This document shows positions 5,124 to 63,929 of a DNA stretch of 63,929 nucleotides, piece by piece. The translations under genes were made by a program, and so were the position numbers. The notes beneath the pieces were generated by a model, which did no database searches, was not told the DNA's origin, and saw only the letters and a program-made list of their open reading frames with translations. This stretch comes from an uncultured Bacilli bacterium (GTDB taxonomy: Bacteria; Bacillota_I; Bacilli_A; RF39; UBA660), in assembly GCA_947625635.1 (NCBI GenBank), contig CANQPA010000002.1:1-63929 (forward strand), given 5' to 3'. The first letter of the stretch is position 1; every line of letters begins with the position of its first letter.

Positions 5124-5647
5124 CTTAATTCTAATATTCCATAATTTCCATCTTTTCTTTTATATAATACATTGACTTCATTAGTTTCCACATTTTTAAA
5201 CACAAAGAAATCATGATCTATCAATTCCATTTGTAGAATTGCTTCTTCTTCATTCATTGGCTTACTTTCTATAATTTTTCTTTTAACAATTGTTTTATCA
5301 TTTTCTTCTTTTTCTTCAAAATCTAAAATAAAACTTCTAATTAGATCTTTATCCACCTTTTTACTCATTCTTGTTTTATTTTTTCTTATTTGTCTTTCTA
5401 TAATATCAGACACTTTATCAATAGCAGCATATAAATCCTTATTTGATTCCTCACCTCGTAACAATATTCTACCAGTATTAATTGTAACTTCTACCACTTG
5501 TTCATTACCTCTTAATTTAACCAATACAGTAACAATAACATCATCACTGTTTTCAAAATATTTTTCTAACCTTCCAATTTTTTCTTCTATATAATTTCTT
5601 ATGGAATTAGTTACTTCCATTTTCTTTCCATGAATGATAAATTTCAT
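5120..5647 (-). CDS. hpf: ribosome hibernation promoting factor, long form
   Basis: 175 aa. The N-terminal S30AE/YfiA-like region (ITGKxxEVT type, IRNYIEEKIGRLEKYF) and the C-terminal dimerisation domain (FFVFKNVETNEVNVLYKRKDGNYGILE) are both present. Confidence 0.9.
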   Translation of the reverse strand: MKFIIHGKKMEVTNSIRNYIEEKIGRLEKYFENSDDVIVTVLVKLRGNEQVVEVTINTGRILLRGEESNKDLYAAIDKVSDIIERQIRKNKTRMSKKVDKDLIRSFILDFEEKEENDKTIVKRKIIESKPMNEEEAILQMELIDHDFFVFKNVETNEVNVLYKRKDGNYGILELR

Positions 5648-5936: not shown

Positions 5937-6268
5937 AAACACATCTCCCTTCTAGTTCTTGTTTACTATTTCAGTATAACATAAAGTTTAATATTTTTTT
6001 CAAATATCGTCCAATAATATTCGACAATTTTCGCAATAAATGGACATACCGTATCTGTAAAAAAACATTCTAATCTTATCATACTTAATATTATTCTAAA
6101 AGTACAAATGCATAAAGTGTCAAATTTAACGTTTAAAACGTGATGTTGGGCAAACTAGCAGAACACATTTTAAATTATAAAACATTTATTTTTCTTTTTA
6201 AAGCATTAGTAGTTTAAATATTAAATTTTTAATATTATAATTGTCTTGTTGAAGTAAGGTTGGTATGT

Positions 6269-6886
6269 ATGAAAAAATTTATCATTTCAAAATGTATGAA
6301 TTATATAAAAAAATATACAGATTATGATGAAGTAAAATTAAAAGAAATTGAATATGGTCTTGTTGGGATTTATCTTATGATTTCAAAGATGATTATAATT
6401 TTTTCCTTAGCATATGTGTTGAACATATTAAAAGAAATGGTTATATTCACTATAATATATAATATTCTTAGAGCTTCGTCGTTTGGACTACATGCAACAA
6501 AGAGTTGGATATGCTTATTATTTTCTACAATTTCATTTATAGGCATTCCTTATATATGCAAAATTATATACATCCCTATATTTTTTAAAGTAATAATATG
6601 TATATTAGGAATTTGTTTTATGTTTAAAAATAGTCCGGCTGATACAAAAAAAAGACCTATTGTAAGTAGAAAAAGAAGAAATATATATAAATTTATTTCT
6701 ACAATTTCAGTAATTATATATAGTTTTATAGTTATAATAATTGATAACAATTTTATGACAAATTGTATTATATTTTCTATTATAATTCAAAATTTTGTAA
6801 TATCACCTTCTGTATATAAAATATTTAAATTGCCTTATAACAATTATATAACATTTTTAAAAGAACATCCAGAATATGCTAATTAA
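6269..6886 (+). CDS. agrB: AgrB-type membrane peptidase (autoinducing peptide processing)
   Basis: Polytopic membrane protein with the AgrB signature ...ILRASSFGLHATKSWICLL... (His/Cys pair) and a later NSPADTKKRPIVSRKRR basic loop. It sits directly upstream of an AgrD-like peptide gene. Confidence 0.8.
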   Translation: MKKFIISKCMNYIKKYTDYDEVKLKEIEYGLVGIYLMISKMIIIFSLAYVLNILKEMVIFTIIYNILRASSFGLHATKSWICLLFSTISFIGIPYICKIIYIPIFFKVIICILGICFMFKNSPADTKKRPIVSRKRRNIYKFISTISVIIYSFIVIIIDNNFMTNCIIFSIIIQNFVISPSVYKIFKLPYNNYITFLKEHPEYAN

Positions 6887-6942
6887 TTTGGTTTAAACCT
6901 TATAAAGGTTTAAATATAAAAGAATTGAAAGGAGGAAGTATT

Positions 6943-7059
6943 ATGTTTTTTGCTAATTTACTAGCATTGTTAGGATTAGGTTCTGCTAATACAGGAAGTC
7001 AAGCATGCTTACTTATGTATTGGGATGAAGAAGAATGTCCTGAATCTTTAATAAAATAA
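6943..7059 (+). CDS. agrD: AgrD-type autoinducing peptide precursor (38 aa), absent from the ORF track
   Basis: A GGAGGAAG RBS lies 6 nt before the ATG. The product is MFFANLLALLGLGSANTGSQACLLMYWDEEECPESLIK: an amphipathic leader, then Cys plus a hydrophobic core, then an acidic DEEE.PE.L recognition tail like staphylococcal DEVEVPKEL. Confidence 0.75.
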   Translation: MFFANLLALLGLGSANTGSQACLLMYWDEEECPESLIK

Positions 7060-7065
7060 TAAATT

Positions 7066-7096
7066 AAAACCGTTAGAATTTCTAACAGTTTTTTTG
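7066..7096. terminator. bidirectional terminator between agrD (+) and the kinase (-)
   Basis: aaaac-cGTTAGA-att-TCTAACag-ttttttt: a 6-bp stem flanked by an A-run and a T-run. Confidence 0.55.
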
Positions 7097-7110
7097 TCGC
7101 TTTTTTATTG

Positions 7111-8430
7111 TCATGATTTTTTATATTTTATTATTAAATTTTGACTAAAAATATTTTTACTTATTTCCGTTTTTTGATCAAATATCACATTACTCTTTAC
7201 TATATTTTTAACTAAAGCTAAACCATAACCATGGCCTTTTCCTTTTGTAGTATAACCTTCATTATCTATTTTTGAAATGTCAATTGAACCTTTATAGTTG
7301 TTGGAAACTTTTATGCATAATGAATCATTATCCAAATATAATTCAATATTTATATTTTTTTGTTTTAAATTTTTTACTTCATCAATAGCATTGTCTATAA
7401 ATACACCTATAATTTTACAAATATCTATTATAGTATCAGTATCTAATTCGATTAAGTCAACTGTTCTAATATTCCTATCTATGTTTAAAAAATAACTAAT
7501 CTCATTTTCTTTTATTTTTAATATTTCAGAATATATTGTAGCCCTAAGACCTCCTGAAGGTATAGAATTAACCTCAAATAATAATTTTTCATCATCCAAA
7601 TATTTTTCCTCTATTATTGAATCAATATATTTTGGTATATCCTTATCTTTATTTATTATCATAGCTCTAACAGTCAATAAAAGATTTTTATTCTCATGAT
7701 TTGCAACTCTATACTTTGTCATCATATTTTCATAATCATTTAAACTTTTAATAGCCACGTTATATTTATTTGATACTTTGTTATATTTATTTTGAGTTTT
7801 AAATGAGTAAAAAATTATAGCTAAAACCAATAATGTAACAGAAACATTAAAAATAAGTATATATTCAACTTTTACGGTATTATATGAAGAAGACAATAAA
7901 ATATTTAAAATTAAAACACCAACTATGCAAAATAAACTGAGTTGAACAGAATTTATCTTGTCTGTAATCTTCAACAAAGTTTTGTATAATTTTTTAACAA
8001 ATTTAAATCTTACTGATATATACAATAAAATTGCTATGGTAACATTAGTAACGAATATTCCCAATGTTGATTTTATAGTTTGTTCAGTCTGATTTCCAAA
8101 TATTAATAACAATATTAATGTATATATGAACTCATCAAAAAATATTATTATTTGTGTATATATCGGTGTGATAATAGTTTTATTCCATTTTTCTTTAAAT
8201 AAATATTTGAAAAATATAATTAAAATTAAGGTCATTATTGTAATTTTGACGAATCTATTTATAACTATATAATTTATTATTGATGTAAACATCAGACCAA
8301 TTAATGTCACGTATAATTTGGAATCTTTAAAATTTACTGTTTTATTTAATAATAAATGCCAAGCATACAATGTCGATGACATTAATATCAAAGCATATAC
8401 AATAGTAATAAATATTTTAGAAATACTCAT
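7111..8430 (-). CDS. agrC: AgrC-like sensor histidine kinase (polytopic N-terminus, GHKL ATPase C-terminus)
   Basis: About 6-7 predicted TM helices, then a C-terminal ATP-binding region ...NNYKGSIDISKIDNEGYTTKGKGHGYGLALVKNIV. I chose the ATG at 8428-8430 (AAAGGAG RBS, 1 nt after the regulator stop) rather than 8490. Confidence 0.75.
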   Translation of the reverse strand: MSISKIFITIVYALILMSSTLYAWHLLLNKTVNFKDSKLYVTLIGLMFTSIINYIVINRFVKITIMTLILIIFFKYLFKEKWNKTIITPIYTQIIIFFDEFIYTLILLLIFGNQTEQTIKSTLGIFVTNVTIAILLYISVRFKFVKKLYKTLLKITDKINSVQLSLFCIVGVLILNILLSSSYNTVKVEYILIFNVSVTLLVLAIIFYSFKTQNKYNKVSNKYNVAIKSLNDYENMMTKYRVANHENKNLLLTVRAMIINKDKDIPKYIDSIIEEKYLDDEKLLFEVNSIPSGGLRATIYSEILKIKENEISYFLNIDRNIRTVDLIELDTDTIIDICKIIGVFIDNAIDEVKNLKQKNINIELYLDNDSLCIKVSNNYKGSIDISKIDNEGYTTKGKGHGYGLALVKNIVKSNVIFDQKTEISKNIFSQNLIIKYKKS

Positions 8431-8431
8431 A

Positions 8432-9133
8432 TTAGTTAAGCTCCTTTCTATATTTATCTGAAAGCAAATCGATTGTTTCTCCGTTATCAAATGTTATTAT
8501 TCTGTTCATTTTATCTATTTTAACTTTTCTATTATAATTTATGTAACATGCTCTATGTGTTTGAATGAATCTATCATCCAACATTTTTACTATATCAGCT
8601 AAAGATTTGTTTACTTTAAATTCAGCATAATCTGTCTTAATTATAGTTTTTCTTTCAAAACTTTCTTTTGTTATATATAATATATCATTTATATTTATTG
8701 TATACATTATATTTCTATCAGTAAATCTTATTGTATTCTTTTTATTTAGTATATCTAATGCTTTTTCTAATGAATTATTTAATCTATTCTCACAATCATC
8801 AAACTTGTTTATAAAAGATAAAAATAGTAAATCATTTTTCAATACGATATTTCCTAATTCTTCGTGTGCTGTTAAAAATATTATTACACTGTTTATATCC
8901 TTTTTTCTTATTTCTCTTGCTACATCTATTCCGGATTTTGTCGGTGTCTCAATGTCTAGTAAATAGATTTTAGCTGGTAATTTAGTTTCAACTTTATTAT
9001 AAAATCCATTTTTATAATCATCAAAAGTATAAATAGTATGTTCTTTTTTATTTTTTTCCATAAAATTTTTAACAATATTTTTTATTTTATTTCTATCTTT
9101 TTCATTATCATCACAAATTATAACATTAATCAT
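8432..9133 (-). CDS. agrA: LytTR-family response regulator (AgrA-like)
   Basis: Receiver domain (MINVIICDDNEKDR...YLLDIETP...IIFLTAHEE) followed by a LytTR DNA-binding domain (...FIQTHRACYINYNRKV). The ATG at 9133 lies 7 nt after a GGAGG RBS. Confidence 0.85.
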   Translation of the reverse strand: MINVIICDDNEKDRNKIKNIVKNFMEKNKKEHTIYTFDDYKNGFYNKVETKLPAKIYLLDIETPTKSGIDVAREIRKKDINSVIIFLTAHEELGNIVLKNDLLFLSFINKFDDCENRLNNSLEKALDILNKKNTIRFTDRNIMYTININDILYITKESFERKTIIKTDYAEFKVNKSLADIVKMLDDRFIQTHRACYINYNRKVKIDKMNRIITFDNGETIDLLSDKYRKELN

Positions 9134-9233
9134 CCAGTAACCTCCTATATTTAGAGCCAGAATTATACAACTAAATAATACCACAATTGACTTTTATTTA
9201 CAATAATTTCCATACAAGTTAGATTATCAGTAA

Positions 9234-11721: not shown

Positions 11722-12468
11722 TCACCTCTTCGTTAATATTTCATACCCATCTTTGGTAATTAACACTGTATGTTCAAAGTGAGCGGATGGCTTGTCATCT
11801 AGAGTTACTACCGTCCAGTCATCATCTAATAGACAAACATCAGCAGTTCCTAAATTAATCATGGGTTCGACAGCTATAACCATTCCTTCTTTTAAGATAG
11901 GTCCAGTATTCTTTTTTCCATAGTTTGGAACATCAGGATCCTCATGTAAATGGTTCCCTACACCATGTCCAACTAGTTCTTTAACTACGCCCAATCCTTT
12001 AGATTCAGCATATTTTTGTACTGCTTCTCCTATATCTCCAACGTGAGCCCCAGCTTTAACCTGTTTTAAACCTTCATACAATGATTTTTCTGTATGCTCA
12101 AGCAAATACTTTTTTTCATCTGATATAGTTCCAACTGGATACGTCCAAGCACTATCACCATGATAACCCTTATAGCAAGCACAAATATCAAGAGTTACTA
12201 TATCTCCATCGCATAATTTTCTTTTACTTCTAATACCATGTACAACCTCTTCATTGATTGAAATACAAATATTTCCAGGGTATCCGTTATACTGATAACA
12301 AGATGGAGTAGCACCCCTTTTTATAATATAATCGCGAGCCAGTGAATCAATTTTTTCTGTTGTTATTCCTGGCCTTAAAAATGATTTTAGATACTTATGT
12401 GTATCTCCTACTATTTCACCAGCTACACGCATTAATTCTATTTCTCTTGGAGTTTTAATATTAATCAT
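11722..12468 (-). CDS. map: type I methionine aminopeptidase
   Basis: 248 aa with metal-ligand context ...VHGI...DIVTLDI...GYHGD...VGHGVG...VIAVEPM...EHTV. Confidence 0.95.
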
Positions 12469-23454: not shown

Positions 23455-23483
23455 ATTATACGTTATTTAAAAAGAAAAATCAA
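23455..23483 (-). promoter_or_regulatory. sigma-A type promoter of the S10 operon
   Basis: The minus strand reads TTGATT-N17-TATAAT (-35 at 23478-23483, -10 at 23455-23460), about 130 nt upstream of rpsJ. Confidence 0.65.
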
Positions 23484-23506
23484 CACTTTTTTAAAAATTT
23501 GTTGAT
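23471..23506 (-). terminator. terminator of the first pilin-FGE gene, overlapping the S10 -35 box
   Basis: The minus strand reads ATCAACA-aatttttaaaaaag-TGTTGAT followed by TTTTTCTTTTT. Confidence 0.5.
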
Positions 23507-23633
23507 TTTTTGTTAATTTTAAAAGTAAATACCTATTTCATTATATCAATTACATATTCAAAAACTATAAAATATAAAGAATTGTACATTTCTTAGTTAT
23601 ATTATTTTATTTTATCAATCTATTTTGTATTAG

Positions 23634-25226
23634 TTATAAAATAACAATCCTAAATGAAAGTCTACTATCCTTTGCACCTGAAAATGGATAACTACTAAAA
23701 ACTCCGGCAAAACGGCTATTAGCATCATCTCTTAGAAGCCATGGAGCTGCTTGGGATAAAAATGCTGGATTATCTCCATACCATCCCCTAGTTTCGCTTA
23801 AACCAAACCCATAGCAAATAGCTTTATTACAAGCACTATCTACTGATGTGTCAGTAAATAAATCATAATATTTTGAAGATTTTAAATCATCTGGTAACGT
23901 TTCAAAACCAGAATTAACAACTGTATTATTATAATTTGCCATTAAGTATTCATAAGAACCACCACTCATATCATATATTCCATATATATTGCCTGTTGTT
24001 GATGCTCCTCCACCACAAAAACCTGTTCCTGATCCCATATCTAACAAATCATCATATTTGCAAGAATTTGAAGCTTTTCCGCCTGGTGCTCCACCACTTG
24101 TTCCCGTATTATATTCCCTAGAATTATTTATATATATTTCTTTATTTGAACCCGTATATAAATTATTTCCGTATTTTCCATATTTGCTTTGTGAAAGATA
24201 TGCAACTGCTCCCCATTCAGAACCTTTCATCATATGTGTATCTATTTCATTCTTGTTTATTTTAAATAGATTTCCTTCTCTTGACATTGAACGTGATACA
24301 AAGAAAAATTTTGATACTGTATTATTTCTTAGTGAAGTAACATTTGGTAGTATCCTTATATTATTTGCATCAATACAATTTTCATCTATGCAACTTAGAT
24401 CATAGTTCCCAGATGTATGACTTGTTTCAAACTTTCCTACCCATATTCCTGATAGTATTTCATCACCAAATGTGAAGGCTGGATGTATTCTATATCCTTT
24501 TTCGTTTGTATTTTCATATGTTACACCTTTATTTATAAAGTTTACTTCTATTTCTCCTGGTACTGTTTTATCATTGCTTCCTTTTCCAAATTGTCCATTA
24601 GTTGTATCTATTTTATATTCATATTTAGGTATCCAAACAAACATAGCTAATATATCTGATGATGTTATATCTTCTTGTTTTGCTGGAACTTTTAATTTTG
24701 TTCCTATATTTTTACTTACTCCATCCTTTAAAATTACAGCGTTTGCCCACCATTGATCATTATAATCATACCATTTTTCACTTGTATCAGCTACCTGCCA
24801 AAAATCATCTTTATATATTACTGGTGTTAAAGTATTATTCATAAGATCTGGATAATTTGCTTGACTTTTGTCTTTGTATAAAACATCACAATATCCAATA
24901 TTTTCAGATAATATTTTCCCATTTTCATATACTATTGTACCTTTGCAAGGTTTTTTACCCGTTATTTCTATTGTTAATTCTTCTCCATCACAAGCAATAT
25001 TACCATCTTTATTTACTGTACAATTAGTTGGATTAAATTCACTTGTTAAATTCTTTCTTATTATTGCTTCTTTGACCGCTTCTAAATATAACTCTTTACT
25101 TCTTTCATTACTTTGTTTCTTTGAAGAATCAACTATATTTAGTACTATTGGCGTAGCTATTAACGCGATTATTGCTAGTATTACGATTACTGCCAAAAGT
25201 TCTATTAATGTAAATCCTCTCTTCAT
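23634..25226 (-). CDS. prepilin-type N-terminal methylation-motif protein fused to an FGE-sulfatase-like C-terminal domain (530 aa)
   Basis: The N-terminus MKRGFTLIELLAVIVILAIIALIA matches the type IV pilin/pseudopilin signal (K/R-G-F-T-L-I-E). The C-terminal half carries, in order, HPAFTF, SEWGAVAYL, GIYDMSGGSYEY, LLRDD and SFRIV. In FGE-sulfatase (PF03781) domains the corresponding motifs are HPV..V.W, EAEWEYAAR, GLYDM.GNVWEW, LRGGS and GFR.V. The ATG at 25226 follows an AGAGG RBS. Confidence 0.6.
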   Translation of the reverse strand: MKRGFTLIELLAVIVILAIIALIATPIVLNIVDSSKKQSNERSKELYLEAVKEAIIRKNLTSEFNPTNCTVNKDGNIACDGEELTIEITGKKPCKGTIVYENGKILSENIGYCDVLYKDKSQANYPDLMNNTLTPVIYKDDFWQVADTSEKWYDYNDQWWANAVILKDGVSKNIGTKLKVPAKQEDITSSDILAMFVWIPKYEYKIDTTNGQFGKGSNDKTVPGEIEVNFINKGVTYENTNEKGYRIHPAFTFGDEILSGIWVGKFETSHTSGNYDLSCIDENCIDANNIRILPNVTSLRNNTVSKFFFVSRSMSREGNLFKINKNEIDTHMMKGSEWGAVAYLSQSKYGKYGNNLYTGSNKEIYINNSREYNTGTSGGAPGGKASNSCKYDDLLDMGSGTGFCGGGASTTGNIYGIYDMSGGSYEYLMANYNNTVVNSGFETLPDDLKSSKYYDLFTDTSVDSACNKAICYGFGLSETRGWYGDNPAFLSQAAPWLLRDDANSRFAGVFSSYPFSGAKDSRLSFRIVIL

Positions 25227-25251
25227 TATCACTACCTCTACTTTTTTATTT

Positions 25252-25282
25252 ATTATATCATTATCTCCTACCTAGATGTCAA
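25252..25282 (-). promoter_or_regulatory. promoter of pilin-FGE gene 1 (TTGACA-N19-TGaTATAAT)
   Basis: -35 at 25277-25282 and -10 at 25252-25257, with a TG at the extended -10 position. It is colinear with the promoter of the paralogue at 32556-32587. Confidence 0.5.
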
Positions 25283-25411
25283 TAGTTTAAAATGTTATCA
25301 TTGAATATTTTTTAAACTTTTGCAACAAATAAAAAAATAAACTGACAATGTTGACAATGTCAATTTATAAATTTATTTAATATTCTTTAATATATTTTAT
25401 TAGGTGATAAA

Positions 25412-25699
25412 TTGAAAATAGTTCCTAGTGTTTCTGCTCCTATTTATACTTCTTCAGCGTTTATACTAGGCTTATTGCTTTGCGATGAATTAACTCCTGC
25501 AGAACAAAATTCGTTAGGTAATTGGTTCATGATGGTCGGGCAAGCACTTTGTACAAACTCTGCACAACAACAGTTATTAAATAATAGAAATAATACTGCT
25601 AATAACTATAATTCTCACATTATAAACGATAATAATCTAAAAGCAAGTGCAAAAAATATAAAGGAGGAGATAAACAATATTTTTAGTAACTTTAAATAA
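25412..25699 (+). CDS. hypothetical small protein (95 aa), hydrophobic N-terminal half and N/Q-rich tail
   Basis: The TTG start lies 5 nt after an AGGTGA RBS. The product is MKIVPSVSAPIYTSSAFILGLLLCDELTPAEQNSLGNWFMMVGQALCTNSAQQQLLNN.... It is divergent from pilin-FGE gene 1. Confidence 0.45.
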   Translation: MKIVPSVSAPIYTSSAFILGLLLCDELTPAEQNSLGNWFMMVGQALCTNSAQQQLLNNRNNTANNYNSHIINDNNLKASAKNIKEEINNIFSNFK

Positions 25700-25722
25700 A
25701 TATAAAAATTTATAGTTTTAAT

Positions 25723-26739
25723 CTATATTTCCCATCCTACTAACTTTCTTTTTATTTTCTTTAATGCATTTTTTTCTATTACATTAACTCTTTGCCTTTT
25801 TATTCCGTAAATTTTTCCTATTTCTTCTAAGGTTTTTTCTTTAAAATATATTAATGTAATTATTTTATATTCCCTATCAGTTAGTATTTGTTTCATTACT
25901 TTATTAATTTTTTCATAATCAATTTTTACTTCAGATAATCTAAAGTCATGGTCATCTGTCATTATAACGTTGACTAGTGAGTCCTTTGAATCATCTGTTA
26001 TATCTGCATCTAAACTTGCTATTTCATGTATACTACTTAAATAAGTTCTAACCTTATCTTCTGATAAATTTAAATTCGTCGCTATCTGTTGTATATCTGG
26101 ATATTTTCTATATTTATCATTATATTCATCTGCAAAACTTTTTATTTTTTTTATATCCAGTGAAGCATGTCTTGGATACCTTATTAAGTATGACTTCTCA
26201 CTTTTGTAATTATAAATTGACTGTTTAATCCAGTATGAGGCGTATGATGAAAATTTTATATTTTTTGTTTCATCGAATTTATCTATAGCCTTAATTAAAC
26301 CAATATTACCTTCCTGTATTAAATCTATTAAAGGAATTCTGTAATCACTATTTTTTTTTGCTATATAAACTACAAACTTTAAATTACAGTTTATAATATA
26401 ATCTTTAATCTCTTTGTTGCCGCGTCTGTATTCTACAAATAATTTTTTTTCTTGTTCCTTGGTTAAAACCGGAAATTTATTAATTTCCGTTAAATATAAT
26501 GTCAAAGAATCTTTATTATATATTGATGAATTTAAATCTTCACCTAAATCATTAATATGCTTATAATTATCTTCAAAATTTAAATCAGTATAATCTTCTA
26601 TATCAATTCCATTTTTTACTAAAGAACAAAATAAATTATCTAATTCTTCATCAATTAAACCTAATTTATTTATTTCATCATATGATAATTTATTATTATT
26701 ACTACTGGCTTTATCTATTAATTGTTGTAAAAAATCCAT
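25723..26739 (-). CDS. sigma-70 family factor, RpoD-like (338 aa)
   Basis: Region 1.2 is LYLTEINKFPVLTKEQEKKLF. Region 2 is NLKFVVYIAKK...DLIQEGNIGLIKAIDKFDETKNIKFSSYASYWIKQSI...IRYPRH. Region 4.2 is TLEEIGKIYGIKRQRVNVIEKNALKKIK. The RBS is GGGGGG. Confidence 0.8.
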   Translation of the reverse strand: MDFLQQLIDKASSNNNKLSYDEINKLGLIDEELDNLFCSLVKNGIDIEDYTDLNFEDNYKHINDLGEDLNSSIYNKDSLTLYLTEINKFPVLTKEQEKKLFVEYRRGNKEIKDYIINCNLKFVVYIAKKNSDYRIPLIDLIQEGNIGLIKAIDKFDETKNIKFSSYASYWIKQSIYNYKSEKSYLIRYPRHASLDIKKIKSFADEYNDKYRKYPDIQQIATNLNLSEDKVRTYLSSIHEIASLDADITDDSKDSLVNVIMTDDHDFRLSEVKIDYEKINKVMKQILTDREYKIITLIYFKEKTLEEIGKIYGIKRQRVNVIEKNALKKIKRKLVGWEI

Positions 26740-26760
26740 AAATATCCCCCCGTCATTAAA

Positions 26761-27588
26761 TTATTTATTAATCTTACTAATATAATTTCGAATTTTTCTA
26801 TATGCTTTCTGTTCATATTTATAAACAGTCGTTCTAGGTACATTTAAAATCTCACATATTTCTCTTGTTCTATATGGTACCCCATTAGTAAAGCCATGTT
26901 TTAATTTTATAACGCTTAATTCATTTTCTCCTAAAATCTCAGATAATTTTGATATATCACATATGTCATATTCATCATTATTTGTATCAGGAACTAAATC
27001 ATATAAAGTCGTTATATCATTCTCATTTATTGTCGAATCTAAACTTTGAACATCATTCATAACTCGTAATGCTCCGATAATCTCTTCTTTTGAATAACCC
27101 AACGTTTCACTAATATTATTTAAATCCGGTATTCTATGATTAATTAAATAATAATGATTAATATATTTTTTTATTTTGTTCAGATTTTCGAATCCATTGA
27201 ATGAAATTTTTAAAATTGAAGAAGATTTAGCTATATATCTTTCAATATCTTTTTTTATACACCATCCTGCATACGTACAAAATCTTACATCTTTAGAAGA
27301 ATCAAATTTTTCAAATGCTTTTACCAATGCCAAATTACCTTCTTGTATTAAATCCATAATAGAAATAGTTTTATAAAAATAATTTTTAGATACATGTACA
27401 ACAAATCTCAAATTACATTTTATTATTTTATCTCTTGCAGATTTATTACCATTTTGATATTCAACAAACAATTCCTTCTCTTGTTCTTTTGATAGGATTG
27501 GATACATGCTTATTTCATTCAAATATAATTTAAATGAATCATAATTCGCGTTAAAAATTTCACTATTATTTTCAATTAAATCATTCAT
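26761..27588 (-). CDS. sigma-70 family factor, RpoD-like (275 aa)
   Basis: LYLNEISMYPILSKEQEKELF...NLRFVVHVSKN...DLIQEGNLALVKAFEKFDSSKDVRFCTYAGWCIKKDI.... The C-terminal HTH is TREICEILNVPRTTVYKYEQKAYRKIRN. Confidence 0.8.
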   Translation of the reverse strand: MNDLIENNSEIFNANYDSFKLYLNEISMYPILSKEQEKELFVEYQNGNKSARDKIIKCNLRFVVHVSKNYFYKTISIMDLIQEGNLALVKAFEKFDSSKDVRFCTYAGWCIKKDIERYIAKSSSILKISFNGFENLNKIKKYINHYYLINHRIPDLNNISETLGYSKEEIIGALRVMNDVQSLDSTINENDITTLYDLVPDTNNDEYDICDISKLSEILGENELSVIKLKHGFTNGVPYRTREICEILNVPRTTVYKYEQKAYRKIRNYISKINK

Positions 27589-27772
27589 ATTAAATTCCCC
27601 CTCTTGATAAATAATACTAAACTCTCGTGATATTTTTATTATAATTTTTTTACAATATTTTGAATTCTTATTTTTAGAATATTATCACGTTTTAAAAGGC
27701 CATATTATCTGTAATGATTATTATATCAAGTTATAAATCATTTTAACTGATCTATATAGTTTAATAAAATTA

Positions 27773-27794
27773 AGAAAAAAAGGTATAATCTACC
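27773..27794 (-). terminator. rpsF-ssb-rpsR operon terminator
   Basis: The minus strand reads GGTAGattaTACC immediately after the rpsR stop, followed by TTTTTTTT. Confidence 0.55.
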
Positions 27795-28013
27795 TTATTT
27801 AACAAATGGTATTAAAGCCATATGTCTTGCATATTTTACTTGCGTAGCTATATGTCTTTGATGTTCAGCACAAGCGCCAGTAATTCTTCTAGGTAATATT
27901 TTAGCTTTATCTTGACTTATATATTTTTTTATTACTTCTACGTTTTTATAATCAACATCTTTACCTGCACACATCTGACATATTTTTTTCTTTTTTCTAA
28001 AAAATTCTGCCAT
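27795..28013 (-). CDS. rpsR: 30S ribosomal protein S18
   Basis: ...KICQMCAGKDVDYKNVEVIKKYIS...ILPRRITG. Confidence 0.96.
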   Translation of the reverse strand: MAEFFRKKKKICQMCAGKDVDYKNVEVIKKYISQDKAKILPRRITGACAEHQRHIATQVKYARHMALIPFVK

Positions 28014-28026
28014 ATTTATCCTCCTA

Positions 28027-28512
28027 TTATTCTAAAAAATTATCATCTATTGAAACACTATCTCCAAATTCAGCAAATGGATCATTTTCTACATCAATTT
28101 CATTTTGATGTGGAGTATTATCTTGATAATCATATGGGGTTGTTTCATAATTACCCATTTGTGGTTCTGTTGAAGAAGCTGATGCTACACGTGCTGCCTT
28201 ACTTTCAACAAATTCAAAATTATCTAATGCTACTTCAACTGTATATCTCTTATTTCCATCTCTATCGTCATAACTTCCAGTTTGTAATCTTCCTTCTATT
28301 GCAATTAAGTTTCCCTTATCAAAGTATCTGGAAATTGTTTCTGCTTGCTTCCTCCAAGCAACTACATTTATAAAGTCTGCATCCCTTTTTCCATCAGTAT
28401 TCGTAAAGTTCCTATTTACAGCTACAGTAAATCTTGTAAATGCTGTATTTTGCTGTGTATAACGCAATTCTGGTTTTGCAGTTAATCTACCCAATAATAC
28501 TACTTTATTCAT
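28027..28512 (-). CDS. ssb: single-stranded DNA-binding protein
   Basis: MNKVVLLGRLTAKPELRYT...FINVVAWRKQAE OB-fold, with an acidic C-terminal tip. Confidence 0.95.
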   Translation of the reverse strand: MNKVVLLGRLTAKPELRYTQQNTAFTRFTVAVNRNFTNTDGKRDADFINVVAWRKQAETISRYFDKGNLIAIEGRLQTGSYDDRDGNKRYTVEVALDNFEFVESKAARVASASSTEPQMGNYETTPYDYQDNTPHQNEIDVENDPFAEFGDSVSIDDNFLE

Positions 28513-28523
28513 TATTACACCTC

Positions 28524-28826
28524 TTAGCCCTTCTTATTTATTATTAAATGTCTAATAATATCATTGCTTATCAAAGCTAATCTATCAAATTCTTTTATTG
28601 CTTTATCATCATTAGCTTCAATATTAACTACAAAATAATATCCACTTTTATAAGTGTTATTTCCAACTTTTATTTCATATGCTAAAGTTTTTTGTCCCCA
28701 AGCGTCAACATTTGTAACTTTTGCACCATTAGTTTCTAATGTTTTCTGAAAATTAGATGCTACTTTTTTAATATCATCTTCACTTAATGTTGGTCTTACT
28801 ATAAACATAATTTCATAATTTCTCAT
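28524..28826 (-). CDS. rpsF: 30S ribosomal protein S6
   Basis: MRNYEIMFIVRPTLSEDD. Confidence 0.96.
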   Translation of the reverse strand: MRNYEIMFIVRPTLSEDDIKKVASNFQKTLETNGAKVTNVDAWGQKTLAYEIKVGNNTYKSGYYFVVNIEANDDKAIKEFDRLALISNDIIRHLIINKKG

Positions 28827-30845: not shown

Positions 30846-32531
30846 TTATTTGGCAGGAGACAACACTATACGAAACGCATCACGTGAGTAACCAGAGCCA
30901 TACCATTTACCATATCTAAATATACCTCCATCTTTAGCATTATCAGCAATACCACCTCTATCGAACCATGGTTCACTCAAAGTTGGAAATGAAACTCCAT
31001 CAGAATACCAATGAGCTGTTTCATCTAATGCATGTCCTTTATTTTGTTCATTTAATGAGTTAGTATCTATGTAGCTATCAAAATATTTATCATCTATCTT
31101 AATTGCAAATTTTGCTGAATCTACTTCATTACCATTTTTATCCGTTCCTGCACCCCATACACTTGTATATGCCGTGGATAAATACCCCATTGCATACTCA
31201 TATGCTCCACCACTCATGTCATATATTCCGGATATATTTCCTGTTGTTGAGGCTCCTCCACCACAAGATCCTTTTCCTTCTCCCCTGTCGTTTATATCAT
31301 TGTATTTACATTGTTCTTGTGAATATTCTAATTGACTTGGAGTTCCATTACTCATGCCTGTTATATAATTTTTCGACTTATTTTGATATATTTCTTTATT
31401 ATCATTAGTATATAAATTATTACCATATTTTCCATATTTAGATTGTGAAAGATAAGCCGCCGCTCCCCACTCACTATTCTTTATCAAATGAGAATTTGTC
31501 ATTTGTTGGTTTATTCCAAATATATTATCATCTCTAGACATTGATCTAGATATATAAAACATATCTGACAACTTTTGGGACCTTAGCGAGGAAACGTTAG
31601 GCAATATTCTTATTGCGTCTGAATTACTGCATGTCTCATCTGAACATAAAAAAGAAACATTCTTATTACAACTTGTCTCAAATTTTCCTATCCATATTCC
31701 AGATAATTCTTCACCACCAAACGTAAAGGCCGGATGTGTTAACCATCCTCTTGGTTTACCTGACGTATATGTTGAGTTTCCCTTCTCTTTTGTATTTTGA
31801 TCTACGAACTTTATATCAATTGCTCCTGGTGTTGTTTGACTTGGTGCTGATCCGCCTTCCAACTGTACTCCATACGGATATTTTATGGTGTATGAATATC
31901 TTGGTATCCACACAAACATTCCTAATACATCTGAATCTTGTCCTTCTACTGTTACTATATCTCCTACTTGTTTTGTATCTTTAACTTCGTCTGTTAATAT
32001 TACTGCATTTGCCCACTCTTGTTTACTATAGTCATACCATTTCTCTTTTTCATTTACTATTTTCCAATTAACACCATCATATACTACTGGTGTTAATGTA
32101 TTACCCATTAAATTTGGTATTGGTATATATTCCTCTGTCAATACATATTCACTATCAATACCATCTTTTGTCACATACTTTTCTATATTTTCATATTTTA
32201 AATTTAAAGCTCTTGTTACATTGGTATTATCTACTATTATCATACCATTTATTGGTTTTACTCCATCTACATCTACTACTATTTCCTTCGTGTCACAAAT
32301 TAAATTACCATCTTCTTTTATTTTACATTCACTTGGGTTAAATTCTTCTATTGTATTTATTGATAAAATTTGTTTTTCTATTGCATTTATATATCTGTCT
32401 GCACTAATTAATATACCTTTTTCGTTAGAAATCTTTACTATATTATATACTCTTGGTATTGTTATTAATAATATTACAGCTAATATTACGATTACTGCAA
32501 GTAATTCTATTAATGTAAAACCTTTTCTCAT
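30846..32531 (-). CDS. second prepilin-type N-terminus / FGE-sulfatase-like protein (561 aa), paralogue of 23634-25226
   Basis: The N-terminus is MRKGFTLIELLAVIVILAVILLITIP. Blocks shared with the paralogue include NTLTPV.Y, KWYDY..Q.WANAVIL, MFVWIP.Y.Y, THPAFTFG.E.LSGIW.GKFETS, IRILPNV.SLR, SEWGA.AYLSQSKYGKYGNNLYT, GGGASTTGNI.GIYDMSGG.YEY, DRGG and AFRIV. Confidence 0.6.
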   Translation of the reverse strand: MRKGFTLIELLAVIVILAVILLITIPRVYNIVKISNEKGILISADRYINAIEKQILSINTIEEFNPSECKIKEDGNLICDTKEIVVDVDGVKPINGMIIVDNTNVTRALNLKYENIEKYVTKDGIDSEYVLTEEYIPIPNLMGNTLTPVVYDGVNWKIVNEKEKWYDYSKQEWANAVILTDEVKDTKQVGDIVTVEGQDSDVLGMFVWIPRYSYTIKYPYGVQLEGGSAPSQTTPGAIDIKFVDQNTKEKGNSTYTSGKPRGWLTHPAFTFGGEELSGIWIGKFETSCNKNVSFLCSDETCSNSDAIRILPNVSSLRSQKLSDMFYISRSMSRDDNIFGINQQMTNSHLIKNSEWGAAAYLSQSKYGKYGNNLYTNDNKEIYQNKSKNYITGMSNGTPSQLEYSQEQCKYNDINDRGEGKGSCGGGASTTGNISGIYDMSGGAYEYAMGYLSTAYTSVWGAGTDKNGNEVDSAKFAIKIDDKYFDSYIDTNSLNEQNKGHALDETAHWYSDGVSFPTLSEPWFDRGGIADNAKDGGIFRYGKWYGSGYSRDAFRIVLSPAK

Positions 32532-32555: not shown

Positions 32556-32587
32556 ATTATACCATTACCCCCCCCCCTACCTGTCAA
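32556..32587 (-). promoter_or_regulatory. promoter of pilin-FGE gene 2 (TTGACA-N20-TGgTATAAT) with a G10 tract in the spacer
   Basis: -35 at 32582-32587 and -10 at 32556-32561. The spacer is GGTA + G10 + TAATGG. The ATG lies 24 nt downstream of the -10 box. Confidence 0.5.
32568..32577 (-). repeat. homopolymeric C10 (G10 on the coding strand)
   Basis: Counted directly: accattaCCCCCCCCCCtacc. It is the longest G/C homopolymer I noticed in this AT-rich window. Confidence 0.9.
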
Positions 32588-46322: not shown

Positions 46323-46853
46323 TTAAAAATATTTATCTATTATAGTTTTAACCATAGTAGTATACTCTACATCTGTTGTATTACTGTCTTCTGCCTCTAA
46401 GAGGCATAATGGAGGAAACAATACACACCACCAGTTGTCGCCTAATCCTTCTCCTAATGTTATTACAACTGATTCATAGTATCCTTCATCATATGTTATT
46501 CCTTTAAATTCCTTTTTAGGAAAGTAATTTAATCCAAAATTAATTGTAAACGGTAATTCATACTCTTCTTCTTGTAAAGTTGTGTAAACTTTGTCCTCTA
46601 ATGACGATAGATGCCTTTTAATACGACTTCTAGCTTCTTCTAAGGTTTTTGTATCTTTCAACAATTTATACATATCACTTTCTACTGTTTTTTTTACTTT
46701 ATATTTAATGTTTTGATCATATTCAGAATTTGAATTGGCAATTACTCGTATCCTTATCGCATCATCTGGAATTATATTACTTACTGCAATTACATTTCCT
46801 ATTATTATATATGCCAATATTGTAAATAAAAAGGCTAAAAGAATTTTTTTCAT
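46323..46853 (-). CDS. spoIIR: stage II sporulation protein R
   Basis: ...IRIRVIANSNSEYDQNIKYKVK...GDNWWCVLFPPLCL.... Confidence 0.85.
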   Translation of the reverse strand: MKKILLAFLFTILAYIIIGNVIAVSNIIPDDAIRIRVIANSNSEYDQNIKYKVKKTVESDMYKLLKDTKTLEEARSRIKRHLSSLEDKVYTTLQEEEYELPFTINFGLNYFPKKEFKGITYDEGYYESVVITLGEGLGDNWWCVLFPPLCLLEAEDSNTTDVEYTTMVKTIIDKYF

Positions 46854-62793: not shown

Positions 62794-63929
62794 TCAATTA
62801 TCATACAAAACTTCTTGAGATGCACAACCTAAAAACATGTTTAATGTATCATTTCCATCGTTTATTATCCATTTATCCCTTGATACCAATATCTTACTTA
62901 ATTTAGAACAATTAACGAACATTCTTCCCATCTTTTTCATACTCGATAAATTGAAACTTCTTAGATCTAATTCTGTTAAATTCATACAATCTTCAAACAT
63001 AGTAATCATATTGGTTACTTGTGACGTATCAAAACTTCTTAAATTTAAATTTTCTAAATTTGTACAATATTGAAACATTTCTGCCATTGATATAACACTA
63101 CTTGTATCAAAATTTTTTAAATCTAAACTAGTTAAATTTCTACAACTTGCAAATAATTTATCCATATTAATTACTTTATTTGTTACAAAATTGCTCACAT
63201 TTAATTCTGTAAGACTTTTACAACCTGCAAACATACCATTCATATACATTACTTTGTTTGTTACAAAATGACTTACATCTATTTCTGTTAAACTAGAGCA
63301 TCCCATAAACATATTTGCCATAGATTCTACTTCTGATGTATTAAAGTTACTAACGTTCAACTCTTTTAGATTAGAACAATTTTGAAACATACTGTCCATA
63401 CTAGTTACTTGTGATGTGTCAAAACGGCTTAAATCTAACTCTGTTAAACTAGAACAATTTTGAAACATACTATTCATATATTCTACTTCTGATGTATTAA
63501 AATGACTTATATCTAATTCACTTAAACTTGAACAACCTCTAAACATACTGTCCATACTAGTTACATTTGATGTATTAAAATGGCTCACATCTAATTTGAT
63601 TAAACTGGAACAGCCATAAAACATACCCTGCATAGCTATTACTTTGTTTGTTACAAAAAGGCTTACATCTACTTCTGTTAAACTTGAACAACCTCTAAAC
63701 ATACTATTCATATATTCTACTTTCGATGTATCAAAATTACTTACATCTACTTCTGTTAAACTGGAACAATTATTAAACATGCTCGCCATTGTTGTTACTT
63801 TACTTGTATCCATTAAATCAAATGTTATATCATTTAATGATTGAAAGTTGTAAAACATATTATTACTTTTAGGATTTGCTGATATTACATTTTCTGAATA
63901 TATATATACTGTTCCTTTTTCATCATAAT
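62794..63929 (-). CDS. BspA/DUF285-type leucine-rich-repeat surface protein, C-terminal part (open to the window end)
   Basis: About 13 tandem ~24-residue units of the form SMFxGCSSLTELDVSNFDTSxVxxM. The reading frame stays open upstream of the ORF-track Met (…YDEKGTVYIYSENVISANPKSNN-MFYNF). Confidence 0.85.
   Translation of the reverse strand, partial: YDEKGTVYIYSENVISANPKSNNMFYNFQSLNDITFDLMDTSKVTTMASMFNNCSSLTEVDVSNFDTSKVEYMNSMFRGCSSLTEVDVSLFVTNKVIAMQGMFYGCSSLIKLDVSHFNTSNVTSMDSMFRGCSSLSELDISHFNTSEVEYMNSMFQNCSSLTELDLSRFDTSQVTSMDSMFQNCSNLKELNVSNFNTSEVESMANMFMGCSSLTEIDVSHFVTNKVMYMNGMFAGCKSLTELNVSNFVTNKVINMDKLFASCRNLTSLDLKNFDTSSVISMAEMFQYCTNLENLNLRSFDTSQVTNMITMFEDCMNLTELDLRSFNLSSMKKMGRMFVNCSKLSKILVSRDKWIINDGNDTLNMFLGCASQEVLYDN

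Follow-up and report, generated by a model that had tools for sequence, protein, structure and literature searches.

Gene content of the region between rpsR and rpsJ

The DNA analysed here is a 63.9 kb stretch (hereafter the window), a single contig of its genome, and all negative results for the window cover that stretch. It has a GC content of 27% and represents an origin-proximal chromosome segment of a Bacilli-type organism, with mnmE/mnmG/rsmG, parAB, dnaB, rplI and the S10-spc-alpha operons among its contents. Four accessory genes lie between the S10 operon and the rpsF-ssb-rpsR block: pilinA, encoding a modular type IV pilin-like protein; ORF95, a small open reading frame (ORF); and the adjacent sigma-70 genes sig338 and sig275. 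A paralogue of the first, pilinB, is found on the other side of rpsF-ssb-rpsR (Table 1). An earlier note, made from the sequence alone, reported these genes and the S10 promoter, and put the four genes forward as an undescribed module in which one or both sigma factors control pilin-anchored proteins with a domain resembling formylglycine-generating enzymes (FGEs). All five ORFs were found as described, and the S10 promoter lies where the note had placed it. The module itself did not hold up. We consider it probable that the region is a hotspot mosaic, in which the sigma factors are independent of the pilin genes, and that pilinA and pilinB encode modular-pilin adhesins with diversification at the level of their family.

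Synteny in related genomes

Two sets of loci were compared with the window: 79 carrying members of the pilinA family, used for a census of neighbouring genes (L001-L079), and those carrying ORF95 (L080-L161). In the closest relative genome (GCA_947588865.1, locus L080) the order is ftsH, o51889, ychF, cmpB, rpsF, ssb, rpsR, sig338, ORF95 and the S10 operon, with sig338 and ORF95 present and pilinA, sig275 and pilinB absent. The window's pilinA cassette of about 1.8 kb stands against 189 unrelated bases in L080, and the sig275 indel is clean, the intergenic sequence at both its ends being conserved; L082 lacks sig275 too. Single sigma genes stand beside ORF95 in L080 and L082. In L083, L090 and L091, rpsR is followed directly by ORF95 with no cargo, while elsewhere the cargo consists of surface or membrane proteins (the L084 group), Hsp20 and a P-type ATPase (L087), GpsA (L093 and L103), pilin-family genes around ORF95 (L101 and L125) or unrelated genes (L098). 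The gap between ORF95 and rpsJ in relatives is about 215-255 bp.

The earlier note had itself held that its module would fall if the four genes did not co-occur in related genomes, and the module reading fails because L080 lacks pilinA, sig275 and pilinB and other relatives carry no cargo or unrelated cargo. Nor does the sigma pair travel with the pilin genes: just five of the 79 family loci have sigma genes within 10 kb, and these encode SigA, SigG-like or other unrelated sigmas (the SigG-like one lies at 17589-18365 of L058). Judged by its synteny, the rpsR-rpsJ stretch is probably a hotspot at which one clade of low-GC uncultured gut Bacilli has received insertions, and its four genes a mosaic.

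The surroundings have also moved. In L080 (1-2184), ychF has ftsH and the o51889 orthologue immediately upstream of it, whereas in the window about 21 kb (30613-51888, with rplI, dnaB, parAB, an AbgT-like transporter, pilinB and others) separates them from ychF, which points to a near-origin rearrangement between close relatives.

Table 1. Features of the pilin-sigma region, in window coordinates
Feature	Position	Strand	Description
pilinA	ORF 23634-25232; likely ATG 25226, giving 23634..25226	minus	530-aa modular type IV pilin-like protein
pilinA cassette, ~1.8 kb (gene and promoter)	23532..25338	minus	blastn boundaries against L080
pilinA VR-equivalent	23637..23756	minus	last ~40 codons, ...PWLLRDD...AGVF...SFRIVIL
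pilinA promoter	25252..25282	minus	TTGACA 25282-25277, 19 nt spacer, TGaTATAAT (TATAAT 25257-25252)
ORF95	25412..25699	plus	small three-helix protein (predicted), resident gene
sig338	25723..26739	minus	SigA-derived, group-2-like alternative sigma (putative)
sig275	26761..27588	minus	N-terminally short orphan sigma-70 paralogue; lineage-specific indel
pilinB	30846..32531	minus	561 aa, pilinA paralogue of the same architecture
pilinB VR-equivalent	30849..30968	minus	...PWFDRGG...GGIF...AFRIVLSPAK
pilinB promoter	32556..32587	minus	TTGACA 32587-32582, 20 nt spacer, TGgTATAAT (TATAAT 32561-32556)
G10 homopolymer	32568..32577	minus (C10 on plus)	inside pilinB spacer; candidate slipped-strand switch
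S10 operon promoter	23455..23483	minus	TTGATT-17-TATAAT; context, conserved in L080
rpsF-ssb-rpsR block	27795..28826	minus	context; followed by weak hairpin and T-run

Architecture and fold of the pilin proteins

The pilinA and pilinB proteins are 44% identical, and both carry a type IV pilin (class III) signal peptide. The prepilin leader of pilinA is MKRG/FTLIE (leader sequence MKRG/FTLIELLAVIVILAIIALIA) and that of pilinB MRKG/FTLIELLAVIVILAVILLIT. Both proteins exceed the cutoffs of PF07963 (N_methyl; 27.9 and 25.6 bits against 21.2) and TIGR02532 (33.5 and 29.4 bits against 16.3), and this prepilin motif is all that Pfam and NCBIfam recognise in them. An AlphaFold model of pilinA, built from a 53-homologue alignment (predicted local distance difference test score, pLDDT, 87.7; predicted template modelling score, pTM, 0.79), has an alpha-1 helix at residues 7-61 and a small beta head, together forming a pilin module of residues ~1-112, and a C-terminal domain of ~400 residues (~130-530) with the C-type-lectin (CLec)/FGE superfold. 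The predicted architecture is that of a modular pilin, in which the pilin module is joined to an additional, independently folding module.

Searched against PDB with Foldseek, the pilinA model gave as top matches the variable proteins TaqVP (5vf4, E 5e-8, probability 1.0) and Mtd (1yu1, E 3e-4), and so has the C-terminal CLec fold of proteins varied by diversity-generating retroelements (DGRs). The FGE-fold proteins PorK, EgtB, PvdO and OvoA rank lower, with E from 0.009 to 0.8. Among viral models the best matches are phage tail/collar fibre proteins and a SUMF-like phage protein. A sequence search of PDB retrieved 5vf4 marginally (E 0.009), a match that became meaningful only once the fold search was in.

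The FGE label given to this domain by the earlier note raises the question of whether it is a catalytic oxidase of the FGE/EgtB/PvdO type, tethered to the surface and either formylglycine-generating or sulfoxide-forming. Weak matches to PF03781 (FGE-sulfatase; E<=1, best E 4.6e-6) in 29 of 53 close family members and the Foldseek matches to EgtB, PvdO and OvoA (E 0.03-0.8) speak for such an enzyme. Neither window protein, however, matches PF03781 at E<=0.1, and the non-enzymatic TaqVP, Mtd and phage tail fibres outrank the enzymes by 5 to 7 orders of magnitude. The catalytic Cys pair of formylglycine-generating enzymes constitutes the Cu-binding residues; since the 53-sequence family alignment has no Cys in any invariant or >=90% conserved column, this pair is absent from the family. 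The DGR hypermutation of the C-terminus in relatives (see below) is, moreover, a hallmark of binding sites and not of active sites. We therefore regard an enzymatic function as highly improbable, and the weak PF03781 matches indicate a remote superfamily relationship only. Of the earlier description, the prepilin leader and the superfold stand, the former through PF07963 and the latter through the fold search, in which FGE-fold similarity is present but ranks behind the DGR variable proteins; membership of PF03781 does not. "FGE-like" is right as a superfold, and the domain is of the ligand-binding CLec kind, not an FGE enzyme.

The strong structural likeness to phage tail collar/fibre proteins and Mtd could also mean that the pilin-CLec genes are remnant receptor-binding tail-fibre genes of a prophage, and not genes for cellular surface proteins. 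To this we give scarcely any credence: the surroundings are housekeeping genes, neither the window nor the neighbour census has phage genes, PHROGs matches are confined to the N-terminal pilin segment, and the genes are multicopy, have promoters of their own and encode cellular export signals (a prepilin leader or a transmembrane (TM) signal). At the level of the protein, the surface or filament display suggested by the earlier note is upheld as probable.

The family is very large, with at least 7,920 database homologues of pilinA and at least 578 loci among species-representative genomes; the database cluster of the window protein has a single member. The hosts are nearly all uncultured gut "Bacilli"/"Tenericutes" known as metagenome-assembled genomes (MAGs), plus Candidatus Onthousia. 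Genomes carry multiple copies, in tandem at 15 of the 79 loci, and many copies lie at contig ends. Most members have, in place of the pilin leader, a basic-TM-G(T/I)SYA(W/L/F) signal. The frequent exchange of pilin leader for TM signal implies that the CLec module is the constant part of these proteins and the anchor exchangeable. The TM-type N-terminus, exemplified by L042 (9311-11272), is basic and then hydrophobic, and ends in G(T/I/V)SYA(W/L/F)(L/F). A possible resemblance of these sequences to SipW-type signal peptides drew no match in NCBIfam and is not claimed here.

Small pilins that might assemble with the large ones occur in L021, where three have an N-terminus near-identical to that of the family's pilin type. 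As the earlier note had reported, no prepilin peptidase and no PilB/PilC/PilD/ComG-like assembly genes were found in the window.

Promoters and poly-G tracts of the pilin genes

As the earlier note had seen, the two pilin genes have near-identical promoters with long spacers. These are the only perfect TTGACA-N15-22-TATAAT pairs on either strand of the whole window. A generic promoter scan was uninformative in so AT-rich a sequence (38 sites against 38.4 expected), and a generic terminator scan of the window found none. The pilinA spacer holds an interrupted G-tract, GGTAGGAG, and the pilinB spacer an uninterrupted G10, which is the only G/C run of seven or more bases in the 63.9 kb and sits where a change of length would alter promoter spacing, as in a contingency locus.

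Such tracts recur in the family. There are 32 runs of G>=8 at family loci, every one on the gene strand, and none in 578 kb of ORF95 loci. Of the 58 family genes with complete 5' ends, 17 have a tract of G>=8 within -250 to +150 of the start. When the window's own tract is added to the 32, 14 of the 33 sit between a -35 and a -10 hexamer that each match the consensus in at least 5 of 6 positions, their spacers measuring 16 to 24 nt. L004, for example, has TTGACA-G13-CAATGAGATAAT in front of a pilin-type gene, the same architecture as at pilinB. In L005, L017 and L028 the G run comes just after the ATG, about 30 nt upstream of the prepilin-motif codons, a position in which the number of Gs would determine the reading frame. 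The recurrence of poly-G tracts at the starts of family genes suggests that they cause slipped-strand phase variation. A sequencing artefact is an unlikely source of the tracts, given that they are internal, strand-consistent and positionally conserved.

Runs of 10-11 G in the leader-peptide codons of pilin-type genes, or immediately ahead of them (ATGAGTA-G10-TAC...), were recorded at L005:9329-9338, L017:2827-2836, L028:355-364, L025:252-261 and L029:11582-11592. The frame as assembled meets a stop, and one G less or two more would be predicted to restore it, so that these runs look like a translational phase switch.

A further element lies in the intergenic region between ORF95 and pilinA (25330-25365, minus-strand reading AAATTGACATTGTCAACATTGTCAG). 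It is a palindromic tandem TTGACA/TGTCAA motif containing ACATTGTCA twice, its counterpart in L080 is TTGATATTATAAACAATATCAA, and it may be an operator or a divergent ORF95 promoter element.

The two sigma factors

The sig338 and sig275 proteins are 35% identical. The regions claimed for them in the earlier note are those of RpoD-like factors. This was borne out for sig338, which passes the Pfam thresholds for sigma regions 1.2, 2, 3 and 4 and has a region-1.1-like N-terminal segment. It was borne out in part for sig275, which passes for regions 1.2, 2 and 3 but falls short for region 4 (14.7 bits against a cutoff of 24.1). The possibility that they are ordinary housekeeping or sporulation sigmas, which the note had wanted checked, can be set aside, as both miss all NCBIfam equivalog cutoffs by far: RpoD (572 bits; sig338 174, sig275 141), spore_sigF (321; 99.9 and 106), SigG model NF006071 (372; 124 and 103), SigK (299; sig275 91) and RpoS, reached by neither.

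The canonical SigA of the clade, seen in L072 in a dnaG-sigA context, has the recognition residues WWIRQAITR and TRERIRQIE in regions 2.4 and 4.2. In sig338 these read YWIKQSIYN and KRQRVNVIE, and in sig275, which has also lost the IRxPxH motif, WCIKKDIER and PRTTVYKYE. Among 5.8 billion proteins, sig338 has one close homologue (77% identity), all others being at most 37% identical; its comparison with L080 gives a ratio of nonsynonymous to synonymous substitution rates (dN/dS) of 0.175, that is, purifying selection. The best database match of sig275 is 38% identical, and no orthologue was found. In L082, the corresponding locus holds a sigma 33% identical to sig338 that keeps the canonical SigA helices. 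Sigmas at this locus are thus 33-77% identical between genomes whose ribosomal proteins are more than 90% identical. On these comparisons, sig338 is best read as a fast-evolving but functional SigA-derived alternative sigma restricted to the nearest relatives, and sig275 as an orphan, partly degenerate extra sigma copy, degenerate in regions 2.4 and 4.2. A phage origin of the pair was considered and rejected, PHROGs having matched only its generic sigma entry.

A regulatory unit formed by the tandem sigmas (one or both), ORF95 and the pilin-FGE genes, and transcribing a small surface-protein regulon, could be argued from the adjacency of the genes in the window, from the near-identical and atypically spaced pilin promoters, and from the altered recognition residues of both sigmas, which must read some non-canonical promoters. 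The pilin promoters, however, have perfect TTGACA and TGnTATAAT hexamers of the housekeeping type, which argue against an alternative sigma at these sites, and synteny likewise opposes the sigma control that the earlier note had proposed: L080 has sig338 and ORF95 without pilinA, sig275 or pilinB, sig275 has no orthologue anywhere, the sigmas near five family loci are all unrelated, and ORF95 is widespread without a sigma. We judge such a unit very unlikely. No evidence ties sig338 or sig275 to the pilin genes, and the reading of independent cargo at a hotspot is preferred.

ORF95

The divergent 95-codon ORF of the earlier note is confirmed on the plus strand. Its product is 93% identical to that of L080, with dN/dS 0.038, a stronger constraint than that on ribosomal proteins. 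The family has 210 representatives with the conserved motif EQN.LGNWFML.GQ.L.TN and is adjacent to and divergent from rpsJ in 17 loci. ORF95 is predicted to form three helices (model pLDDT 81.7). No match was found in Pfam, NCBIfam or PHROGs, and the Foldseek search that the note had recommended returned no fold match. A role as anti-sigma was ruled out, ORF95 being widespread without a neighbouring sigma. Its distribution and conservation argue that it is an ancestral, fixed resident at rpsJ in one gut Bacilli clade.

Diversity-generating retroelements in the family

In the census of the 79 family loci, a reverse transcriptase (RT) of the DGR type and bAvd were the only specific recurrent neighbours of the family. 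The RT carries the DGR hallmark GNYTSQ...YMDD, and Pfam confirmed both RVT_1 and bAvd. The RT motif is present at seven family loci, and RT or Avd at 7-8 of the 79. These include L001, whose family gene is the closest pilinA homologue (55% identity) and lies directly upstream of bAvd and RT. The 3' ends of family genes, as variable repeats (VRs), pair with template repeats (TRs) downstream of them, and VR/TR mismatches are concentrated on TR adenines (15 of 15 in L024, 17 of 17 in L036, 11 of 12 in L065 and 15 of 19 in L061). In L001 no TR was found by a short-word BLAST search, which excluded 823 bp of its contig.

Five of the DGR loci have a tandem array between the target gene and avd-RT, with 4-10 units of ~310-350 bp each (L036:7391-9175, L039:12377-13930, L061:6770-8606, L062:5269-8567 and L065:12391-13929). 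Each unit includes a TR-like segment of ~110 bp with the conserved end CTCGTTCCGCCTCGTGATGA, and of each array a single unit pairs with the VR with mismatches confined to adenines. Tandem arrays of several TRs are not usual in DGRs. In L039 and L062, T-rich and non-coding-looking sequence occupies the VR position (L039:11135-11247 and L062:4532-4645). With the first unit before the array (12293-12405 and 5184-5296, respectively) it shares 98-100% identity, and it truncates the target protein after ...WL(V/L)RGGG. This sequence may be a homed template copy that switched the gene off.

Neither pilin gene of the window is accompanied by such a system. The 63.9 kb hold no RT, Avd or TR, hence no linked RT/Avd for either gene, and no repeat of the 3' end of pilinA or pilinB, hence no VR/TR pair. 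The VR-equivalents have a GC content of 0.38 against 0.30 in the remainder of the gene for pilinA, and of 0.41 against 0.31 for pilinB, whereas the VRs of RT-linked relatives reach 0.53-0.61 against ~0.33 elsewhere in the gene. The conserved GC-rich 3' end TCGTTCCGCCTCGTGATGAG is missing from the window's VR-equivalents, whose GC content resembles that of untargeted members. With no RT, Avd or TR, a low GC content at the VR position and no GC-rich end, the window copies look non-diversified.

One or both of them could nonetheless be actively hypermutated in their C-terminal ~37 codons by a DGR elsewhere in the genome. DGRs with several dispersed targets exist, as in Treponema denticola (PMC5758913). 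The adjacency of the L001 homologue to bAvd and RT, the VR/TR pairs confirmed in family members and the VR scaffold RGG...AGVF...SFRxV that the window proteins retain are all compatible with action in trans. The base composition just described and the missing GC-rich end are not what RT-linked targets show, no component lies within the window, and none of six TRs of relatives matches it at E<1e-4. Hypermutation in trans thus seems unlikely, and we prefer to regard pilinA and pilinB as non-diversified copies of a family in which other members are DGR targets.

Proposed mechanism and significance

In the mechanism that we propose, the leader of pilinA and pilinB would be cleaved by a prepilin peptidase encoded elsewhere, and the N-terminal helix would either anchor the protein in the membrane or insert into a filament of small pilins sharing the same N-terminus, probably at its tip. 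The lectin-fold domain would then bind a ligand, for instance a glycan or protein of the host or of other microbes. Diversity in the family has up to three sources. Many paralogues are present per genome. In a subset of relatives, and with no evidence of it in the window, DGR mutagenic retrohoming varies the last ~37 codons. Lastly, poly-G tracts in promoter spacers or leader codons would switch expression by slipped-strand mispairing. At pilinB the G10 tract would gate expression, its spacer currently standing at 20 nt, and pilinA may have a decayed version of the G-tract spacer, fixed at 19 nt.

Several points weigh against this interpretation. Pilin-family genes adjoin ORF95 in four loci (the window, L069, L101 and L125), an association that independent insertion leaves unexplained. 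Variation in the length of G10 is read from the architecture of the promoter, and promoters with an extended -10 (TGn) can function even where the spacing to the -35 is poor. Neither the window nor any of the compared loci showed a prepilin peptidase or an assembly ATPase, and none is among the recurrent neighbours of the family; for this reason we count filament display as inferred, and the protein could simply remain membrane-anchored. The ligand of the modelled lectin-fold domain is a postulate. The analysis covers one contig, and a DGR in trans or a sigma-dependent second promoter is possible.

Control by the sigmas would have made the four genes a novel regulatory system, but no such module is present; the case cautions that genes between conserved operons can be independent hotspot cargo. 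What the region offers in its place are concrete adhesin candidates, lectin-fold proteins that are anchored by a pilin module or in the membrane and belong to a very large family without a name. Animal and human guts harbour small-genome uncultured Bacilli (formerly "Tenericutes"-like) in abundance, and next to nothing is known of their attachment to surfaces. The family extends DGR targets to type IV pilin scaffolds and links phase variation, through apparent poly-G gating, with mutagenic retrohoming within one gene family. More tentatively, as an idea that falls somewhat short of probable, these parts may together make up an undescribed surface-variation system of host-associated, reduced-genome Bacilli. 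In such a system, a superfamily of more than 8,000 pilin- or TM-anchored CLec adhesins would be varied by stacked paralogues, poly-G switches and DGRs (including the arrays of 4-10 TR-like units), pilinB would be a live phase-variable copy, and SigA paralogues might add a further layer of control.

Other features of the window

Apart from these genes, the window encodes an agr-type quorum-sensing module, with AgrB at 6260-6886 (plus), a GHKL sensor kinase at 7111-8490 (minus) and a LytTR response regulator at 8432-9184 (minus), the module as a whole spanning 6260-9184. A SpoIIR homologue at 46323-46853 (minus; PF09551, E 1.5e-38) implies that the pathway activating sporulation sigma-E is at least partly retained in this small-genome lineage. 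At 62794-63858 (minus), in a gene that nearly reaches the window end, lies a PARCEL-repeat surface protein (TIGR02167, 11 repeats), a candidate for another variable surface protein. PARCEL-repeat proteins are known from Mycoplasma and from Listeria lipoproteins.

Comparison with known systems

Among sigma factors, sig338 resembles the group 2 sigma-70 proteins in having regions 1.2, 2, 3 and 4 and a region-1.1-like N-terminus and in matching RpoD models best. It differs from them in its changed -10/-35 recognition residues and extreme divergence, and sig275 differs further in lacking the N-terminus and in its degenerate region 4.

Homopolymers between -35 and -10 are known from the poly-G of Neisseria meningitidis porA and opc and the poly-A of Mycoplasma hyorhinis vlp. 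As in these genes, the tract in the present family lies between the hexamers of a surface-gene promoter that otherwise follows the consensus, with family spacers of 16-24 nt. Unlike them, the family belongs to low-GC uncultured Bacilli, some members carry the tract in leader codons, and the resemblance is one of architecture alone.

With the FGE-sulfatase superfamily (SUMF1/FGE, EgtB, PvdO, PorK; PF03781) the window proteins share the superfold and the motif GIYDMSGG.YE. They differ in their sub-threshold relation to PF03781, in lacking the Cys pair and in being closer to non-enzymatic binders. The DGR variable proteins TaqVP (5vf4), Mtd (1yu1) and TvpA are more alike, with the CLec fold and the C-terminal scaffold RGG...GVF...FR, and family members in relatives are true DGR targets by their RT, bAvd and adenine-specific TR/VR mismatches. 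Unlike these proteins, the window genes have no nearby RT, Avd, TR or GC-rich VR with its initiation of mutagenic homing (IMH) signature, and their products have an N-terminal prepilin anchor. That type of target has been mentioned in passing, G-type pilin targets of DGRs being called "scarcely represented" (PMC11661182). We found no paper describing pilin-anchored DGR targets in these lineages, and pilins go unmentioned in the DGR studies of Roux 2021 and Wu 2018.

The closest parallel in architecture is with modular type IV pilins such as PilB of Streptococcus sanguinis, with a von Willebrand factor A (vWA) module, and PilC, with a lectin module (PMC8179133, PMC9934059). In both cases a class III signal and a small pilin module are followed by a bulky module for ligand binding, with display at the tip of a filament predicted. 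The window module differs in its DGR-type CLec fold. The genes are scattered, multicopy and outside a pil operon, with no assembly machinery seen; most family members use a TM signal, and the family is known here from sequence and model alone. The earlier note knew of no described system with this composition, but the combination of pilin and SUMF-like domains (IPR012902-IPR005532) is already catalogued in 8 proteins (Dataset S1 of PMC8179133). Modular pilins, CLec targets of DGRs and homopolymer phase variation are each known singly, and it is their combination in one very large family of gut Bacilli that appears to be undescribed.

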